This document shows, in pieces, positions 1,212 through 50,444 of a stretch of 64,000 nt of DNA; position 1 is the first letter of the stretch, and every line of letters begins with the position of its first letter. The notes under the pieces were generated by a model. The model was not told where the DNA came from. It worked only from the letters and a program-made list of their open reading frames with translations, and searched no databases. The position numbers were made by a program, and so were the translations under genes. The stretch is from Rhizophagus irregularis (Eukaryota). The stretch spans positions 1,674,001-1,738,000 of the forward strand of contig NC_089435.1 of the NCBI RefSeq assembly GCF_026210795.1, written 5' to 3'.

Positions 1212-2360
1212 GTGAGTAGTAAATATATGTAATTTAAATTTTTATAATAAACTTGTAGATACTAACTAAAAATTTATACTTTAATAATTTATGACGATTT
1301 GTCCATTCTTTATTTAGTTATCAAATCACTTCTGTATACTTTTTATATATTTCCAATATTAATATTTTTTAGAGTTACAAGAAACTTTTATGAAAAATCA
1401 AAGATTAAATTTATGGAAATTACTGCCGAATAAATAAATATTTTATCTATCTATATAGAATAGTAGAAGTTAAATTTGGATTTTTTCTTTGTAAAGGACA
1501 TTTCTAATACGTTGGCCGGTATTTAGGTTTTTCGCTTAGTCCTAATAAACTTCTCGTAATGACGTATATTCATTAAAGATATTAATAATATTTTAGTCTA
1601 TGGCGGTCTATTAATTTAATAATAAAAGTATTGCGTCATTAATTAATATATTATTTATTAATTTGACAATATTTAATATTTAATTCCAAATAATTTAGAA
1701 CTTTGTAATATATACTGTATTTAACAAATAAACAAATTTTAAAATATTAAAATTGGGATATATTTTAAAAGTGTACATGATTACATTGCCTTATAACTAG
1801 ATGTAGTGGCGCGATGATACGATTCATTACTTGAATAATTAAATAATTAATTGATGATATTTACTTTTTTTTGCTAAAATTGAATTGAACCAATTAGGGA
1901 TTAGAAACTTGAAAGATTCGATTTTCAATTCCAACGCCTAAGAGGCAGTAAGAGCCAATATTTCTTAAAAACAATTAATTAATTCATTAATCTGAAAATA
2001 TTTATCTCTTGGCGTTTTTAAACAATATTTTAAATTTAGGTTCATTGTGAATGAGTCTATTGGCTGACATATAAGGCATTAAGGCTCGTATAACAAAAAA
2101 ATTGTAAAAAAAAACTCTTAAAAATAGGGTATTAAACGTAAAAGTACGAATATTACATGCATTGACGAGTGCTTAGTGAACCCATTTGTTACAATGCCCG
2201 CTTAAGTTGTGAACTTTTTTGTCAATAAATTCAACTAATTTTAGATTATTTGACTTATCAAATAGAAAAAAAAGAAAGGAAAAAAAATATATTCTTTTAT
2301 TATATATAATTAGTGTAATATATATTACAAGATTGTAATCTCGATTCATAAAGAAAAAAA

Positions 2361-39273: not shown

Positions 39274-41250
39274 TTATCCGGTATCCCGTGATTTTTTCCA
39301 GTTTTTTTATAATTGTCGATCACTATGATAAATCATGTATTAAGCAATAAAATCTTTATATTGTATATTAGGCGTTATTTATATACTACAATATACATCA
39401 ATTGTTATAAATTGAACAATTATTATAGTAATATTTATTTATAATAATTTTTTTTCTTTTTTTCTTTTTATTATTATTAATATCTATATTTTTGTTAGTA
39501 GAAGTTTCCTGTAATGGCCGCTTGTTCTTATTTTCCAATAATTCCGAAGCCTTGCTAAATCCAGATAATACAATTTCTCCATGTTGCATATTGTCATCAC
39601 ATTGCACTTCATTATCATACTGTATTTCAGTTTTTGAGTTGATATCTGACGTATCTTCAGTTAACCTTTGCATAACCGAACCTAGAATCTTCCTTTTCTT
39701 TTCTTTTGTTACTTTAAGGTAATTACGCACTCCTGCAGATGAATTATGACCTGAAATTGCCATTGCTTCAACTTCTTCATTTCCGGCATCAAATATTGAT
39801 TGTATTGCCGTATCTCTTCCTGAATGGTTAGAAATATTTCTTCCGGAAATGTCAATACCGCACGCAATACAGATTTCACGAAACATCCCTCTAATCCGTT
39901 TTTCACCAAGTGCCCAATCATAATACCATTTACCTTTAGAAATTGCTAGTAAATAATATTAAAATTATAGATTTAATGTAATACAATAAAATAAATTAAT
40001 TTACCTGCTGTATTTGTTGAAATTCCTAAGTAAAATTCTTTGGTTATACAATCTGAGGGTCTCATTGAAATATATTTGCGAATATCTGCATTGGGTTCAG
40101 CTTTACCTTTAACATCTGATGGAAATGGAATTTCAAATGTATATTGGTTACTTTCCAACCCTCCTTGATCATTTTTTTGATGAAATTTCTTAAAAATAAA
40201 TCCATTATCTGTATCTTCAAATTGATTAATTAGTAAATTATAATGTTCACCACCTCGTGGACATCCTAATAAACATATCCATAAAAATACTCTTCTAAGT
40301 AATCCTTCAGGATTATTAAAAGACACAGCATCATGATCTAAAATAATTTTTAATTCGTCATTTGTCAAGCCTTCATGTGGCTTTGCCGCGCCTATTCCTA
40401 ACTTTTTCATCTCTTTTAATGTGCCATCAAGAGTAGCATGTAACTTTGGAAAATGATTTTTATCTAAAAGGTTATAGTTCCATTGTGGAATGGTGTCTTT
40501 AAGATGGCGGCTTATTGAAGCAACTGCATTTTTAAGTGAAGCTCTTGAATATCGCTCTCCAGATTTTGTTCTTATACCGTAAATAAACTCGCACATTTCT
40601 TTTTCAATTTGTTGATTAGAGGAAAGTGATTCTAATGTATATTTATAGCCTACATCTTCATGATTTCGCCAAGAATTTAAAATATTAATCCATTTTTTTG
40701 TACATTTAACTGTATTTTGTGGTACATGACTTTCTTGAACCTTTAAAAGTTCCTTAGCTGTAGGTTTAAAATAAGACTAAAAATTTATTAGTTTTTAAAA
40801 TATAATGATTTTAATAACAATCTGTATTTATAAAATACTTACTTCTTTTATATTCTCCATTATTTTACATTGAAATAATGTGCATAAAGAAATTATTGAA
40901 AGAGGTTAAAGAGGTTTATGTAAAAAAATATTAAAGGAGGTTATATGTAAAGAAATTATAAAAGAGGTTCGTGTAAAAAAAAAATTAAAAGAGGTTACAC
41001 GTAAAAGAGATTATGTGAAGAGAAAAAAAGCTTAAAAAAGCTTAAATAAATGATTTGTAATCACATAATCACAGGATACCGGATAAATCACTTATTCGGC
41101 ACTTCGAACCGAATAACTAACGCCACCTAAAGGTAGCTTATTATATTGGGAATCAAATTTGATCAGTTGATCGCGGAGCCCGGATCAACCAATCAAATTT
41201 GATTTACCCAATATAACAGTTATTCGGCACTTCGTGCCGAATAACTATTA
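39274..41250 (-). mobile_element. Crypton-type tyrosine recombinase transposon
   Basis: The recombinase gene is bracketed by a 20-bp inverted repeat (39274-39293 and 41067-41086, one mismatch), with hairpin-rich DNA at 41091-41250. Boundaries are approximate. Confidence 0.7.
39398..40860 (-). CDS. Crypton tyrosine recombinase (DUF3504/ZMYM-like region + catalytic domain), 445 aa, 3 exons
   Basis: Exons 40860-40843, 40776-40005 and 39945-39398 total 1338 nt and are open. Catalytic-type residues lie in PRGGEH, NHSGR, SGH and VRNY. Confidence 0.85.
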
Positions 41251-41722: not shown

Positions 41723-41908
41723 TAAAGTGAAGAACAATTTTTTGTTAAATGCATGATATCAAATATTACAAAAAAAAAAGCTATATCTTTTTAAAACACA
41801 AATAATTAGTTAATTTTCATTTGTTTTAATATCTAAATATTAAATAAATAAATTAATTAATTTGTAAATTAATTTATTTTATATTATACCAGCTAAATTA
41901 TATACAAT

Positions 41909-44900
41909 TTACATACCTAATTTCAGCATACATTCATTCAAGTCTTCGCTTACTAGCATTTCACTCACTTGTACAGTAGTTTGTGAATTTTTACTTTCAA
42001 GAATTTCATTCAATTGTTTACTAGTAAAATTAAGTAAGCGACTTGTATAGCAAGCCTGTGAGTGAGATTCAGTAGCAAGATTGTTATGCCCAATTGGTGC
42101 ATTTATAAATTCCATAATATTGCATTTTAATTCTTCATTAATATCTTCAATTTTTTTACCACGAGGAAGAGAAGTCCATTCAAGAATAATTTCTAAAACT
42201 TCCTTAGAAGATGGTCTTTTTAATGGATCTTCATCCCAACATTTTTTCATCAAATCAACATAGCATTGTGGAGTATTTTCAATAATTTCAGGACGTTCAC
42301 CTTCACAAATACTTAAACTAAGTTGAATATCATGTGCTCTATTATTAAATGGTGGTATTCCAGATGTAAATTCCCACATAATCATAGAAAAACTATATAT
42401 ATCACTAGCTGGAGTATAAGGTTTGCCTCTTAATACTTCAGGTGCCATAAATGGTACAACACCATAAATATTATGTTCTTCCAATAATGATTTTACAGGT
42501 TGACATAATCCTAAATCACTAATAAAAATTTTACTCTCATCATGATTTAAAATATTGCCATCATGAAAATCATGATGGATAAGATTTTGATTATGTATAT
42601 TTTTAAGTCCAGAAATAATTTCATACAACATGCATAATTTTTGATCCCAACCACTTTCAACTATTCTTGTTAAGTTTCCTCTTAAATTACCTTTGTTTGC
42701 ATAATCCATTACCGCCATATATTTCAAAGTATCTGGATTTTTTGTAAATCCATAAAAATAAATAATTTCATATGAATCTAAACAACTTTCATGATATTTC
42801 CACTATAAAAAATAATAATATATTAATATAAGTACATTATAATTTAAATTAAAAAAATAGTAATATACTATCATACTTCATTTAAAAATTCATTTAAATT
42901 TTCATTTAAATTATCATGACATTTAAGAATTACTTCTCTATCTTTATTATTATACGACCAAATGGCTTTGTATATAGTACCAAATCCTCCTTTATTAAGA
43001 TATTCAACATTTTTAAAATTATTATAAGGAATCCGTATTAACTTTTTTTCAAAAATAAATTCATCCATGATTTTGTTTTCACTTTGTCCAAATCTACAGT
43101 ATAAATTTAAATAATTAAAATTATATAAAAGTTTATAATAAAATTTACACTAAAATTTAAGATTAAAATTAACACTTACTCTAAAATTTAAATAGGAATT
43201 TGAGATAATTTATGTCTTAGTTTTTGTATAAATATATAATAATAAGCTATATTTCATAACTTACCAACTAAAGTAATAGAAATTTTAAAAGAATACAGTT
43301 AGCAAATAAATATCTAGCAATAGAATTAAATAAATAACGTACCATCTATAAAATAATTTTTTAAATAAAGAAATTTAGTTAGTTTAAATTATATGTAAAT
43401 ATTATAACAATAAGTTAATAATAGAATTAAATAAATAACTTACTCCCTATATTATTTAAATAATTTTTTAAATAAAGAAATTTAGTTAGTTTAAATTATA
43501 TGTAAATATTATAACAATAAGTAATAATAGAATTAAATAAATAACTTATGACTTACCAACTAAAATAAATTACAAAATAATTTTTTAAATAAAGAAATTT
43601 AGTTAGTTTAAATTATGTGTAAATATTATAACAATAAGTAATAATAGAATTAAATAAATAACTTACGTTCTATTAGTAAATAAATAAAGAAATTAGATAG
43701 TTTAAATTATATGTAAATATTATAACAATAAGTAATAATAGAATTAAATAAATAACTTACTCCCTATATTATTTAAATAATTTTTTAAATAAAGAAATTT
43801 AGTTAGTTTAAATTATATGTAAATATTATAACAATAAGTAATAATAGAATTAAATAAATAACGTACGATCTATAAAATAATTTTTTAAATAATAAAATTT
43901 AGTTAGTTTAAATTATATGTAAATATTATAACAATAAGTAATAATAGAATTAAATAAATAACTTACTCCCTATATTATTTAAATAATTTTTTAAATAAAG
44001 AAATTTAGTTAGTTTAAATTATATGTAAATATTATAACAATAAGGAATAATAGAAATAAATAAATAACTTACTCCCTATATTATATAAATAATTTTTTAA
44101 ATAAAGAAATTTAGTTAGTTTAAATTATATGTAAATATTATAACAATAAGTTAATAATAGAATTAAATAAATAACTTACTCCCTATATTATTTAAATAAT
44201 TTTTAAATAAAGAAATTTAGTTAGTTTAAATTATATGTAAATATTATAACAATAAGTAATAATAGAATTAAATAAATAACTTACGAACTATATTATTTAA
44301 ATAATTTTTTAAATAAAGAAATTTAGTTGGTTTAAATTATATGTAAATATTATAACAATAAGTAATAATAGAATTAAATAAATAACGTACCATCTATAAA
44401 ATAATTTTTTAAATAAAGAAATTTAGTTAGTTTAAATTATATGTAAATATTATAACAATAAGTAATAATAGAATTAAATAAATAACTTACGAACTATATT
44501 ATTTAAATAATTTTTTAAATAAAGAAATTTAGTTAGTTTAAATTATATGTAAATATTATAACAATAAGTAATAATAGAATTAAATAAATAACTTACGAAC
44601 TACATTATTTTAAATAAAGAAATTTAGTTAGTTTAAATTATATGTAAATATTATAACAATAAGTAATATTAGAATTAAATAAATAACTTACGAACTATAT
44701 TATTTAAATAATTTTTTTAAATAAAGAAATTTAGTTAGTTTAAATTATATGTAAATATTATAACAATAAGTAATAATAGAATTAAATAAATAACGTACCA
44801 CCTATAAAATAATTTTTTAAATAAAGAAATTTAGTTAGTTTAAATTATATGTAAATATTATAACAATAAGTAATAATAGAATTAATAAATAACTTACGAA

Positions 44901-47900
44901 CTATATTATTTAAATAATTTTTTAAATAAAGAAATTTAGTTAGTTTAAATTATATGTAAATATTATAACAATAAGTAATAATAGAATTAAATAAATAACT
45001 TACTCCCTATATTATTTAAATAATTTTTTAAATAAAGAAATTTAGTTGGTTTAAATTATATGTAAATATTATAACAATAAGTAATAATAGAATTAAATAA
45101 ATAACTTACTCGCTATATTATTTAAATAATTTTTTAAATAAAGAAATTTAGTTAGTTTAAATTATATGTAAATATTATAACAATAAGTAATAATAGAATT
45201 AAATAAATAACGTACCATCTATAAAATAATTTTTTAAATAAAGAAATTTAGTTAGTTTAAATTATATGTAAATATTATAACAATAAGTAATATTAGAATT
45301 AAATAAATAACGTACCATCTATAAAATAATTTTTTAAATAAAGAAATTTAATTAGTTTAAATTATATGTAAATATTATAACAATAAGTAATATTAGAATT
45401 AAATAAATAACTTACAAGCTATTATTTAAATAATTTTTTAAATAAAGAAATTTAGTTAGTTTAAATTATATGTAAATATTATAACAATAAGTAATAATAG
45501 AATTATATAAATAACTTATGACTTACCAACTAAAATAAATTACAAAATAATTTTTTAAATAAAGAAATTTAGTTAGTTTAAATTATACAGTATGTAAATA
45601 TTATAACAATAAGTAATAATAGAATTAAATAAATAACTTACAAGCTATTATTTAAATAATTTTTTAAATTTAGAAATTTGGTTAGTTTAAATTATATAAT
45701 ATTATAACAATAAGTAATAATAGAATTAAATAAATAACTTACTCCCTATATTATTTAAATAATTTTTTAAATAAAGAAATTTAGCGTTTATTATATGTAA
45801 ATATTATAACAATAAGTAATAATAGAATTAAATAAATAACTTACTCCCTATATTATTTAAATAATTTTTTAAATAAAGAAATTTAGTTAGTTTAAATTAT
45901 ATGTAAATATTATAACAATAAGTAATAATAGAATAAAATAAATAAATTTCTACAAGCTATTATTTAAATAATTTTTTAAATAAAGAAATTTAGTTAGTTT
46001 AAATTATATGTAAATATTATAATAATAAGTAATAATAATAGAATTAAATAAATAACTTACTCCCTATATTATTTAAATAATTTTTTAAATAAAGAAATTT
46101 AGTTAGTTTAAATTATATAAATATTATAACAATAAGTAATAATAGAATTAAAATAAATAATCTTACTCCCTATAATATTAAATAATTTTTTAAATAAAGA
46201 AATTTAGTTAGTTTAAATTATATAAATATTATAACAATAAGTAATAATAGAATTAAATAAATAACTTACGAACTATATTATTGGGGCCACTTTAAATAAA
46301 GAAATTTAGTTAGTTGAATATATATAAATATTATAACAATAAGTAATAATAGAATTAAATAAATAACGTACCATCTGTAAAATAATTTTTTAAATAAAGA
46401 AATTTAGTTAGTTTAAATTATATGTAAATATTATAACAATAAGTAATAATAGAATTAAATAAATAACGTACAATCTATAAAATAATTTTTAAATAAAGAA
46501 ATTTAGTTAGTTTAAATTATATGTAAATATTATAACAATAAGTAATAATAGAATTAAATAAATAACGTACCATCTATAAAATAATTTTTTAAATAAAGAA
46601 ATTGTTAGTTTAAATTATGTGTAAATATTATAACAATAAGTAATAATAGAATTAAATAAATAACTTACGTTCTATTAAATAAATAAAGAAATTAGATAGT
46701 TTAAATTATATGTAAATATTATAACAATAAGTAATAATAGAATTAAATAAATAACTTACGTTCTATTAAATAAATAAAGAAATTAGATAGTTTAAATTAT
46801 ATGTAAATATTATAACAATAAGTAATAATAGAATTAAATAAATAACTTACTCCCTATATTATTTAAATAATTTTTTAAATAAAGAAATTTAGTTAGTTTA
46901 AATTATATGTAAATATTATAACAATAAGTAATAATAGAATTAAATAAATAACTTACTCCCTATATTATTTAAATAATTTTTTAAATAAAGAAATTTAGTT
47001 AGTTTAAATTATATAATATTATAACAATAAGTAATAATAGAATTAAATAAATAACTTACTCCCTATATTATTTAAATGATTTTTTAAATAAAGAAATTTA
47101 GTTAGTTTAAATTATATGTAAATATTATAACAATAAGTAATAATAGAATTAAATAAATAACTTACGAACTATATTATTTAAATAATTTTTTAAATAAAGA
47201 AAATTAGTTAGTTTAAATTATATGTAAATATTATAACAATAAGTAATAATAGAATTAAATAAATAACGTACCACCTATAAAATAATTTTTTAAATAAAGA
47301 AATTTAGTTAGTTTAAATTATATGTAAATATTATAACAATAAGTAATAATAGAATTAAATAAATAACTTACGTTCTATTAAATAAATAAAGAAATTAGAT
47401 AGTTTAAATTATATGTAAATATTATAACAATAAGTAATAATAGAATTAAATAAATAACTTACGTTCTATTAAATAAAGAAGAAATTAGATAATTTAAATT
47501 ATATGTAAATATTATAACAATAAGTAATAATAGAATTAAATAAATAACTTACGTTCTATTAAATAAATAAAGAAATTAGATAATTTAAATTATATGTAAA
47601 TATTATAACAATAAGTAATAATAGAATTAAATAAATAACGTACCATCTATAAAATAATTTTTTAAATAAAGAAATTTAGTTAACTTAATTGTATTACAAT
47701 AGAAATATAGACATCATATAACTTACACCCTGAATTATTATTAATTTTTAATTAGTTAAATATAGATATAAATATAATAGAAAGATATTCACTATAAATT
47801 GAATATATTACTTACAATCTATTTATTTTAAATTAAGAATATAATTAGTTAAATTATATTAAAATATTAATAAATAAGTCTAATATTAAATATAGCATTC

Positions 47901-48196
47901 TTAAGTATTATAACTTACCAGCTGTAATAATATTTAAACATAGAATTTAGTTATTTGATTATTATGTAAAATAAATAGTAAAAAACTAAAATTTAAATAA
48001 CTGATAACTTACAAACTTATAGTATTATTAACCATAAATAAATTATTTAGTTACATAGAATATAATGATAATAATTAATTTTTAATATAATTTTTATATA
48101 ATATGATAGTTAGTTTATATTTGCAAAATTGTTTAAAAATTTGATGGGATAATTCTAATTTTATTTTATAGCTGTATGATTACCTTTATGATCCAT
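41909..48196 (-). CDS. Tyrosine-kinase-like protein kinase (predicted 422 aa, 52 exons) whose N-terminus is assembled from microexons
   Basis: The kinase exons 43093-42877 and 42802-41909 are solid (KGGFGTIYKA, VILK, HHDFHDGN, DLG, APE, DIYSF). The upstream model is inferred from splice signals: exon 48196-48184 (ATGGATCATAAAG), 48 three-nt exons and a 1-nt exon at 43180. Total 1269 nt, in frame, no stops. Confidence 0.75.
43180..48015 (-). repeat. Tandem array of ~80-115-bp intron units separated by 3-nt microexons (homogeneous core about 43320-47680)
   Basis: Every core unit reads YAG-NNN-GTAAGT or GTACGT on the minus strand (two donors are GTAGAA and GTAAGA), and most carry AACTAAC about 35-40 nt before the AG. 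Confidence 0.9.
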
Positions 48197-50444
48197 TACT
48201 ATATCAAATTCTTCCTAATTGGAAAGATAAAGTGAATATGTATATCCTTTTTTCTTTTTTTTTATTTATCTTAAACGCCTTATTAGTACAGATATTAAAA
48301 TGGTAATAATATTTATGCAAAACGCATTGTATACAAAATGTTGATCGCAAGTACAAGTTGTATGACGCATGTCCGGAATGCATGTTGTAAGACCTAAGTC
48401 CGTATAATAATACGTTTGCCACCTTAGGACTTAACAAAATAATACTTTATTAATAATATAAATAAATACAATAATATGCTTAGTAGTTTAACAATACTAT
48501 AAAATAATAACTAAATATTTATCCAAATATTTCCCTAAATTCGTAACCTGATTTTCCACAATGTCGCCTTTATACAAAGAAACTTCTGCGCATCCCTTTT
48601 TATTAGTTTAACTGCAAAATCTGAAAATATCCTTATCTCATATAACTTTATACTCATAAAAACTACAAGTATTAGTACTTGTTATTTTTCATGTTTTTGA
48701 AATTTCCATTTTTCTTCGTTTTTGATCTTCAAAACCCTTTCCTTAAATGTTAATATCCTAATTATAGATTCTTTCATCATGATCTACAAATCAATCACAT
48801 GATTTCCAATCATCTGATAATCATCTGACTTAAATCTTTCATCTTGGACGTTACATTTCAATATTAAATACTAAAAATTTTAGAAAAAAAAAAAAAACTC
48901 TTCCCCCTTTCCGTCTGATTTCATAGAAATCCGCAGTATACACAAATTTTTTATTTTTTAAAATTTTTAACCCTTTACGTTGGTATAAAAGGAGTGAGGA
49001 CCACTTGGTGGCCTCGACAGAAAGTTCTCCTTAATACACCCCGTTGCTTTTGGAGAGTATTTTATAATAGTATACCAAATATTTTTATCATTATAACACC
49101 TTTGAATATTTTACCTTCCTTTGGGAAAAAAAACCCCTCTGACGCTTCTGCTTCTAAATCGCACGTGACCGTTCCTGATAAGGATGGTTACAACAAAAAA
49201 TCTTTACACAAAATACGTAATATTTTTGCTTATTCATTTCAAACTCACAAGCTTAATCCATATATAGTTAACGATACACGAGGTAGTGGTACCTTGTATA
49301 ACACCAAAAAAAGTAGATACTTCCTTATGGAGTTACACCCAAATGCTGATCTTTGTTTAACAAAGAAAAATTCTTTCAACGTCTACACCAATGATATTGA
49401 TATGCATAATGATCATCAGAGGATCTTCAACTCAACTAGTAAAAAAGTTAATCTTAATTACTTGATAGGGACATATCTCGCTTTTATATTCACAGGTCGA
49501 ACAGATGTCATTGTCGCAAAATTTGCCTGGAATTTTTCTGGCAAATTGAGAATTATCCCGGTAAATTGGGGTAAATTGTGTTACAATTTTGGGATAATGG
49601 AGGACTTACAATTTGGCAAATTTTGTCAAAATGGCGGAATTCCTACAGAATTCCTAATTCAAATATTGAGAAATTTTTCAGTAAATTATCATTAATTGTG
49701 GGAAATTTTAGGTAAATTTTTAGTAATTTTATGTAAATTGTAGTGAATTTAGTCAAATTTTTAGTAATTTTATGTAAACGTAATGTGAATTTAGTCAAAT
49801 TTTTAGTAATTTTATGTAAACGTAATGCAAATTGTGGTGAATTTAGTCAAATTTTTAGTAATTTTATGCAAACGTAATGCAAATTGTGGTAAATTGTAAT
49901 GTATTTTTAGTAATGTTATATAAATTGTTGAAAATTTAGGTGAATTTTTCAGCAATGTTGTGCAAACGTAATACAAATTGTGGAAAATTGTGGTGAATTT
50001 TGCATTTTTTCGGTAAATGTTAGCTAAACTTTTGATAATTTAGTGAAATTTAGGATAATTTTGGACAATTGAGTGAAAAATGTTTTACTGATTTTGTACA
50101 ATTGAGTGTAAACAGTATAAACGCAACATTTTCGGAGACAATTTAGTGAAATTTTGCAATAATTTCGGACAATTGAGTGAAATTTTGCAATAATTTCGGA
50201 CAATTGAGTGAAATTTAGTAATAATTTTAAACAATTTAGTGCAAATACCATGACAATTTAAAACACTGGTTTAATAATTTTACATAATTTATTACAATAT
50301 TATTTATTAACAAATGCACAATTATTATTTAACGATGAGAATCTATATTAATCTATATTCATCAGATATCCAATGATCCATGGGTAATCCGCACATCTAA
50401 TTCATTCATGTATCTCCGATGCCAAAGTAGAAGCTGGTGAAAAC

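Follow-up and report, generated by a model that had tools for sequence, protein, structure and literature searches.

Can a tandem repeat inside a gene be removed by splicing, unit by unit, so that each copy leaves a single codon in the mRNA? The question is raised by a 64,000-nt stretch of the genome of the fungus Rhizophagus irregularis (contig NC_089435.1, positions 1,674,001–1,738,000 of the forward strand; hereafter, "the window"), in which a TKL-type protein kinase gene on the minus strand contains a row of 48 triplets, each standing between AG and GT (AG-NNN-GT, from 48015 to 43265). We consider it likely that the tandem units of approximately 100 nt between 48183 and 43094 are removed as separate spliceosomal introns, leaving a 3-nt exon each and a single 1-nt exon in addition, and that the resulting string of 145 nt, as predicted, is translated in phase 1 from the ATG at 48196 into the kinase.

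Structure of the array

A search of the minus strand with the pattern AG-NNN-GT[AT][ACG]G[TA] gave 47 matches between 48015 and 43265, and the 48th triplet site, CTT at 45956–45954, has a weak donor (GTAGAA). The 48 triplets and their order agree with the list in an earlier note on this DNA, made from the sequence alone. The introns between the triplets are 75–112 nt in length, and the first intron is 168 nt. Tandem Repeats Finder reported a period of 106 nt with 32.2 copies and 88% matches (43319–46668), with overlapping rows extending to 47682, so that copies of a unit of approximately 100 nt lie head to tail as in a minisatellite. The array, which has the look of an AT-rich satellite, is thus a tandem repeat and an intron chain at once. 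The introns of the first four units are unique, and those of the remaining 44 are near-identical. A higher-order repeat was considered as the source of triplet diversity and rejected, because the periods of 206 and 312 nt match no better (87% and 86%, vs 88% at 106 nt).

Canonical AG and GT flank all 48 units, with a GTAAGT-like donor in 47 and GTAGAA in one. Every one of the 42 core introns begins with GT and ends with AG; their donors are GTAAGT (30), GTACGT (10), GTAAGA (1), and GTAGAA (1), and CTAAC occurs within the last 50 nt in 32 of them. A pattern of three consecutive units (ATAG-NNN-GTAMGT, gap, AG-NNN-GTAMGT, gap, AG-NNN-GTAMGT) had 31 matches in the window, all within the array, and none in 100 shuffles. 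An Rfam search of 42500–48600 returned no match at E values up to 1, and therefore no known RNA family lies within the introns.

Evidence for splicing in RNA

The RNA data comprised two runs of raw polyA reads from one study, chosen by species label (X23 and X24), and RNA contigs from two further studies (X2 and X3). Reads were aligned to the 5′ and 3′ flanks of the array at 92% likeness, and the consensus of their loose ends covers 30 letters. At the 3′ flank, 42 reads from X23 (agreement 0.98) and 37 from X24 (agreement 0.95) run from 43093 into TCAACATTCCCAAGTTTCCGATTCCTCCTC (plus strand), the reverse complement of which is GA GGA GGA ATC GGA AAC TTG GGA ATG TTG A, that is, the last 10 triplets in order and a single A. 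The sole possible source of this extra A is ttttag-A-gtaagtg at 43180, which makes it a one-nucleotide exon. One X3 contig has 161 loose letters at 43093 with the same start as the read consensus, a length (145 + 16) that fits full inclusion without proving it, and an X2 contig (619 nt) carries 94 letters upstream of the kinase exon. The RNA depth is approximately 0.3–2 in 43092–43352, vs 15–35 in the kinase exon.

At the 5′ flank, six X24 reads (agreement 1, median loose length of 89 nt) pass from 48184 into GAACACGTTGTTGTTCATACCAATCAGAAA, the reverse complement of which gives the first 10 triplets (TTT CTG ATT GGT ATG AAC AAC AAC GTG TTC). Two X23 reads represent a splicing intermediate, in which exon 1 is joined to TTT, CTG, and ATT and the next intron is retained. 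The units at both ends of the array are therefore separate introns whose triplets are present in the mRNA; the first 10 triplets, the last 10, and the 1-nt exon are all read in mature transcripts, and with loose-end agreement of 0.95–1.0, their inclusion looks constitutive at both ends. The earlier note had named three outcomes that would count against it, all of which turned out in its favor; two concern transcripts, and neither was found: transcripts do not begin downstream of approximately 43200, since reads and contigs cross 43093 into the triplet string, and 43094–48183 is not spliced out whole, since reads carry triplets at both ends. The RNA depth is 5–8 in 48173–48239 and 1–2 in 48240–48306, with coverage starting at roughly 48240–48300. 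The first exon of the earlier note (48196–48184, 13 nt) is thus correct as to its coding part, but the exon also holds a 5′ untranslated region (UTR). The parts of the gene are as follows.

48184–48260 (upper end approximate), minus strand: exon 1, a short 5′ UTR and 13 coding nt, ATGGATCATAAAG; ATG at 48196–48194, end in phase 1, donor GT at 48183–48182; RNA reads leave at 48184
48016–48183, minus strand: first intron, 168 nt (GTAATC ... AACTAAC ... AAG); RNA depth approximately 0 in 48039–48172
47727–48015, minus strand: four diverged 5′ units with unique introns of 80–100 nt; TTT 48015–48013, CTG 47921–47919, ATT 47818–47816, GGT 47729–47727, all read in RNA
43343–47646, minus strand: core tandem array of 43 microexons (ATG 47646–47644 to ATG 43345–43343), with near-identical introns of 87–112 nt and five junction classes; the first six and last eight triplets read in RNA, the others presumed included
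45954–45956, minus strand: microexon CTT, with the sole weak donor (GTAGAA); inclusion uncertain, outside the RNA strings read
43265–43267, minus strand: last 3-nt microexon, TTG; present in the RNA loose end
43181–43264, minus strand: intron from TTG to the 1-nt exon, 84 nt (GTAAGT ... TTTTAG), assigned from sequence; RNA depth approximately 0–2
43180, minus strand: one-nucleotide exon A; AG at 43182–43181, GT at 43179–43178; RNA reads ...TTG-A-ATTTGG
43094–43179, minus strand: intron, 86 nt (GTAAGTG ... CTGTAG); RNA depth 0.4–0.6 in 43092–43178
42877–43093, minus strand: kinase exon, 217 nt (A + FGQSENKIMDEF ... NEFLNE), with the glycine loop GGFGTIYKA; acceptor AG at 43095–43094, assigned from RNA and homologues
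42803–42876, minus strand: intron, 74 nt; the joint 42802–42877 occurs in 23 (X23) and 35 (X24) reads and in X2 and X3 contigs
41917–42802, minus strand: main kinase exon, 886 nt; matches PF07714 (2.8e-33) and PF00069 (2e-31), 96% identical to a Rhizophagus irregularis protein
41833–41916, minus strand: intron, 84 nt, phase 1; contig pieces 41700–41832 + 41917–42120 in X2 and X3
41810–41832, minus strand: last coding exon part (AT ATT AAA ACA AAT GAA AAT TAA), stop at 41812–41810; paralogues end ...DIKTNEN

Other reads share the 5′ leader and diverge after ATGGA or hold other strings, namely ...AAAG CCC TTT CTG ATT, GAGCTC TTT CTG ATT GGT TTC GTG TTG ATT, and ATGTATTAAAG ATT GGT GG; loose ends before 48192 agree at only approximately 0.7. 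Several paralogues or alleles with microexon strings of their own seem to be expressed. In addition, a 41-nt piece of the intron unit (43351–43391, 44087–44127, and 47074–47114; from the branch-site region to just before the acceptor) was observed within another fairly abundant transcript with unrelated flanks (GAAGATACGG... before it and GTTCGTAATAAATGG... behind it, plus strand), with approximately 32–57 reads for either side in each of the runs X23 and X24, and with contigs in X2, X3, and X7; the leader of another gene may contain the unit as a solo copy.

Reading frame and kinase

From the ATG at 48196 to the TAA at 41810, the parts add up to an open reading frame (ORF) of 13 + 144 + 1 + 217 + 886 + 23 = 1284 nt (427 codons and a stop) that stays in frame through the kinase, with 145 nt, the N-terminal 11%, derived from the array. 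The ATG has A at −3 and G at +4, and no ATG upstream of it was seen when the leader (48197–48300) was read by eye. The kinase exon at 43093 opens with one base that finishes a codon (a phase-2 acceptor), and the 1-nt exon A bridges the passage from phase 1 in the array to phase 2 at this acceptor. The earlier note had derived phase 1 from both the first exon and the downstream junction; exon 1 does end in phase 1, but the downstream junction is in phase 2 and needs the 1-nt exon, which that note had included. Its phase-1 peptide is indeed free of stops, but for this array alone this is not significant, because triplets in shuffled order contain 0.87 stops on average, and 37% of the shuffles are free of them. 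Independent backing for phase 1 comes from 37 related arrays, described below, and from the phase of the Met and kinase exons that flank such arrays.

The main kinase exon scores 115.8 bits against PF07714 (cut-off, 23.1; E = 2.8e-33), with E = 2e-31 for PF00069. Its best relatives are Rhizophagus irregularis proteins (96% and 92% identity), with matches in R. diaphanus and R. clarus as well, which places it in the Glomeromycota-expanded group of PF07714 kinases. The phase-1 tail predicted for the window is 27.7% Arg. The kinase exon begins later here than in related array loci, at FGQSENKI, and in phase 2; this motif is common to the paralogues and lies upstream of the in-frame Met 43068. The annotated Rhizophagus paralogues have short, mutually unrelated Met-leaders directly before the common motif FG(K/Q)SGNKII, as would be expected if the gene predictors ran back into the intron. 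Protein searches for transcript-derived relatives returned only genome-model or fragment proteins, and the array-coded N-terminus occurred in none of these.

The R. diaphanus gene model P0009 begins with ...HTCNTCTCDQHF, which resembles the frame MRHTTCTCDQHF just upstream of exon 1 (window 48340–48430, minus strand); this region seems to be conserved and to have been misjoined to exon 2 in the annotation of P0009. Reads over 48412–48481 have other flanks, and thus the piece is also present elsewhere. In another protein, P0205 (405 amino acids), the end of one kinase is joined to the start of the next, and at the start of the second a Cys-rich stretch (KCIECNQ...WCQTCNSK) directly precedes RFQLNFNNWTSGN. 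Family members of this kind have a zinc-finger-like motif where the array-coded tail stands in the window.

Related arrays in metagenome contigs

A general splice-like pattern scanned over metagenome contigs gave at least 113 stretches (approximately 410 estimated in all, ordinary satellites included), of which 111 loci were taken, and a stricter chain rule retained 77 loci with at least three units in a row. These fall into 39 AT-rich loci with variable triplets, 4 AT-rich loci with few triplet types, 13 GC-richer loci with variable triplets, and 21 loci with an invariant triplet (such as ATC nine times in L025 and CAG six times in L014), which were set aside as ordinary satellites matched by chance. 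With one weak donor allowed, the chain rule yielded 37 AT-rich arrays of 4–21 units at 34 loci (313 triplets in total), with introns of 58–112 nt, mostly GTAAGT and ATAG. Introns within one array are on average 66–95% alike in global alignments, indicating that most related arrays are older than the core of the window array, and by blastn their units share 67–85% identity with the window unit.

When codons were read from the last base of one triplet and the first two of the next (phase 1), the 37 arrays contained no stop in 276 junction codons. Shuffling the triplet order within arrays gave a mean of 10.1 stops and a minimum of 3 (5000 shuffles), and pooled shuffling gave 14.5 on average. In the remaining junction frame (X2X3Y1), 54 of 276 codons are stops, and the triplets read as codons have 4 in 313.

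Eleven array loci have at least 400 nt downstream, and in nine of these a kinase follows on the same strand. In seven, it belongs to the family of the window kinase and starts 74–214 nt after the last unit; in two (L007 and L054), it is of a second type with a GSGNFG loop; the remaining two (L010 and L044) have no kinase downstream. A kinase also follows the array at L105, L045, and L076. The kinase exon is entered in phase 1 at all nine first-type junctions (L004, L012, L042, L002, L049, L055, L105, L045, and L076), as it is at L007 and L054, and thus at all 11 junctions inspected. In the first-type exons, two bases finish a codon and are followed by ..FQQNF.NWTSGN.FIDKFIQ... The Met exons of L002 and L048 also end in phase 1, and L048 has a normal 46-nt phase 1-1 exon before the array. 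The kinases of the related arrays are 45–54% identical to Rhizophagus ones, and the named matches listed for them are all from Glomeromycota (Funneliformis geosporum, 65%; Rhizophagus, 53–60%). These results show that the arrangement of a Met exon, an array of one-codon exons, and a kinase exon, all in phase 1, recurs at related loci under ORF constraint. The earlier note had regarded orthologous arrays lacking AG and GT around the triplets as a counterargument; both are kept around the variable triplets, although this was partly built in by the search pattern.

Three further observations concern these contigs. In the conserved ..NWTSGN..FIDKFIQ.. exon, TGA replaces TGG in L045, and L049 has a stop inside FI*KSQ; these two kinases are probably pseudogenes that still carry arrays. 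The final intron ahead of the kinase exon in L055 (approximately 1430–1600, plus strand) carries a GC-rich insert, the long inverted ends of which (catatggggcctttgcaatagaaagg ... cctttctattgcaaaggccccatat) recall a miniature inverted-repeat element. GC-richer contigs (GC 0.42–0.60; L071, L073, L111, and L061, as well as L017 and L020/L056) have the same layout with unrelated intron families, namely tandem units of 70–100 nt with GTAAGT donors, TAG acceptors, and variable triplets between them. L071 and L111 contain TGA in phase 1, so that another frame would be used there, and the ORFs listed in the flanks of L071, L073, L061, and L017 gave nothing interpretable.

Variation within the arrays

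In the core of the window array, the per-site difference is 0.058 for the introns and 0.687 for the triplets, an approximately 12-fold contrast, and in all 17 arrays tested the triplets are more divergent than the introns (1.8- to 12-fold). Triplet identity tracks donor position +4 and the closing ~15 nt of the intron upstream, which together define five junction classes. Units with GGA and units with TTC in the largest class have identical flanks, yet the two triplets differ at every position, a contrast for which point mutation at an equal rate offers us no explanation. No core intron lacks GT or AG (0 of 42), whereas the average column rate would predict approximately 5.1 nonconsensus cells (P ~0.006), which points to selection on the splice sites. 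The triplets have an exon-like composition (GC 0.34–0.44, vs 0.11–0.20 for whole arrays), and Trp (12.3%), Asp (12.3%), and Asn (9.1%) are abundant in the phase-1 peptides.

Proposed mechanism

Each unit would supply a donor (GTAAGT or GTACGT) and a TAG acceptor of its own, together with a branch site of the CTAAC type ~35 nt short of the unit's end, and would be recognized by intron definition, like other short fungal introns. With neighboring splice sites just 3 nt from each other, removal of the introns probably proceeds one at a time; the few intermediates seen lack the 5′ introns and retain a later one. All 48 triplets (or 47, if CTT is left out) would be included, and the string is likely to be translated as an N-terminal tail of the kinase.

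The array may grow and shrink by unequal recombination with one intron and one codon as the unit. Since all introns are in phase 1, the duplication or loss of such a unit would alter one residue and never shift the frame, and selection would need only to purge damaged splice sites and neighbors that create a stop. The intron interiors would be homogenized by recombination or gene conversion among the units, and the triplets may stay diverse because a 3-nt heterology ends conversion tracts. The predicted product is a low-complexity N-terminal tail of variable length, Arg-rich here and Trp/Asp/Asn-rich in the related arrays. A broader proposal can be advanced only tentatively, and we doubt it more than we believe it: the one-codon exon arrays of Glomeromycota would constitute a conserved, heritable diversity generator, in which homogenized tandem introns act as recombination handles and unequal exchange rewrites the N-terminal tails of a hugely expanded kinase family codon by codon with the frame intact, and other soil eukaryotes would have evolved this architecture independently from intron families unrelated to these.

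Alternative explanations

The most serious competitor to a functional tail is an essentially neutral minisatellite, a splice-competent repeat that expands because it is tolerated, each copy costing one codon and its residues having no function of their own. The youth of the 44 near-identical units (intron difference of 0.058), the low-complexity peptides that differ wholly between loci, the pseudogene-like state of two array-linked kinases, and the GC-richer arrays with unrelated intron families, which suggest that the form arises easily, all speak for it. Against this, arrays precede kinases that are only ~45–54% identical to Rhizophagus ones as well as a second kinase type, indicating that the architecture persisted or spread with the family; the triplets are far more diverse than the introns; and Trp and Asp at 12.3% each are hard to obtain by drift alone. 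We therefore regard neutrality as possible, though not probable, and favor a fast-evolving, probably disordered tail over pure neutrality. A further idea, which builds on the earlier note, is that units are skipped in varied combinations, yielding many N-termini from one gene. Any unit could be skipped without a frameshift, one has a weak donor, and variant strings do occur in the reads; yet the loose ends agree at 0.95–1.0 over 30 letters at both ends, and the variant strings differ in exon 1 too (GAGCTC or ATGTATTAAAG before the triplets), fitting paralogues or alleles better than skipping. Such an isoform device thus appears unlikely.

Somewhat less likely still is that the spliced string serves as a 5′ leader only, with the kinase translated from Met 43068 and the frame from ATG 48196 being incidental or a regulatory upstream ORF. 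Met 43068 is in frame, several short annotated relatives start with MD.FI, and the stop-free frame of the window is not significant alone, but no other leader ATG was seen, ATG 48196 (A at −3, G at +4) is in frame with the kinase, the exons flanking related arrays stay in phase 1, Met 43068 lies downstream of the family motif FG.S.NKI, and the related arrays have 0 of 276 phase-1 stops where 10.1 are expected. An artefact, whether reads from a retrocopy or paralogue carrying the string as one exon or an assembly error, is very hard to credit: although paralogous transcripts cross-map, both 30-letter strings match the triplet order of this locus exactly, in the intermediates, spliced triplets run on into a retained intron that belongs to this locus, three studies agree, and a retrocopy would itself prove a spliced mRNA.

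Several points weigh against translation of a string spliced from all the units. The middle 28 triplets are taken to be included on the example of the ends, and skipping of the CTT unit (45956), with its weak GTAGAA donor, is possible. At the 5′ end, the support is thin, amounting to six reads in one run and the two intermediate reads, and many reads aligned at 92% likeness derive from paralogues. The window array by itself is not significantly free of stops (P = 0.37, triplet-order shuffles), and in-frame stops occur in the kinase exons of L049 and L045. In the metagenome arrays, splice-site conservation is partly built in by the splice-like search pattern, which leaves the stop test unaffected, and neither the units within an array nor the contigs of the same projects are independent. 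Finally, both the conversion barrier and the order of splicing are inferred.

Comparison with known systems

The micro-exon genes (MEGs) of Schistosoma give rise to variant proteins through exon skipping; in the present array, the loose ends agree at 0.95–1.0 at both ends, and variant strings fit paralogues. The likeness lies in very short frame-preserving exons, the gain or loss of which keeps the frame, and in a fast-evolving product. MEG exons vary in size, their introns can reach 5 kb, and microexons encode the greater part of a small secreted protein, whereas here all array exons are one codon long (apart from the 1-nt exon) and the introns are ~100-nt tandem copies. Only 145 of 1284 coding nt, in the ORF of an intracellular kinase, come from microexons, no skipping was seen at the two ends read, and the predicted product, at 427 residues with a PF07714 domain, is unlike a small secreted protein, a comparison made without a signal-peptide test. 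The gene is therefore not a MEG, although part of its coding sequence is built from microexons. One report on MEGs gives their frame-preserving exons as 3–81 bp, with long introns (10.1101/2023.06.21.545858).

Isolated microexons have been described in plants (≤15 nt, PMC8831610) and in Drosophila hth (3 bp, PMC7392893), and exons of a single nucleotide in Arabidopsis (PMC4674806) and in the Fusarium gene CYP621A (PMC12940212). As in those cases, exons of 1–3 nt, both sizes of which occur in the window, are spliced by the normal machinery and missed by annotation; the exons in these accounts are single, conserved, and located in ordinary genes, whereas 48 stand here in a row within a tandem repeat. 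Tandem genomic duplication can create a functional intron, according to two reports (PMC3265369, PMC4974935), and duplication of an intron plus 3 nt in tandem would give the structure of the window. The gains on record are single events in which one intron arises from exon sequence with AGGT, whereas here the whole intron is the unit, in ~44 homogeneous copies. The snoRNA host genes, represented by SNORD115/116 in SNHG14 (PMC11608373, PMC3413130), likewise have dozens of tandemly repeated introns in one transcript. Each of those introns carries a snoRNA and the exons are noncoding, whereas the introns of the window have no Rfam match and the exons keep an ORF.

Two other splicing-related systems invite comparison. 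In recursive splicing, a juxtaposed acceptor and donor are used stepwise with a zero-length exon between them; here, unlike at such sites, the mRNA keeps 3 nt (1 nt in one case), as seen in RNA. Introner-like elements also form families of near-identical introns, and units related to that of the window (67–85% identity by blastn) do occur at other array loci, but such elements are dispersed singly and do not stand in tandem within one gene. Within the literature searched, most subscription journals being outside it, we found neither a tandem array of one-codon (3-nt) exons nor microexons in Rhizophagus.

Significance and neighboring sequence

If the middle units are included like the ends, no other run of minimal exons with demonstrated splicing would come close to this one in length, each transcript combining 48 three-nucleotide exons with a single 1-nt exon. 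The array offers a test of minimal exon size and of how neighboring spliceosomes handle sites 3 nt apart, and intron gain by tandem duplication appears to be still under way in it. It also points to a route of protein evolution in which a tandem repeat grows inside a gene and adds exactly one residue per copy. Because one-codon exons are invisible to gene predictors and the Met-leaders of the paralogues are unrelated, many kinase N-termini in these fungi are probably misannotated. The pattern scan, with its estimate of ~410 stretches that includes ordinary satellites, suggests that hundreds of arrays exist in public metagenome contigs.

Adjoining the kinase gene, two adjacent open frames of 186 and 267 amino acids lie at 39401–40776 of the window (minus strand). 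The match of the first to Phage_integrase is weak (E = 0.0063) and does not reach the cut-off, and the pair may represent a mobile element of the tyrosine-recombinase type.

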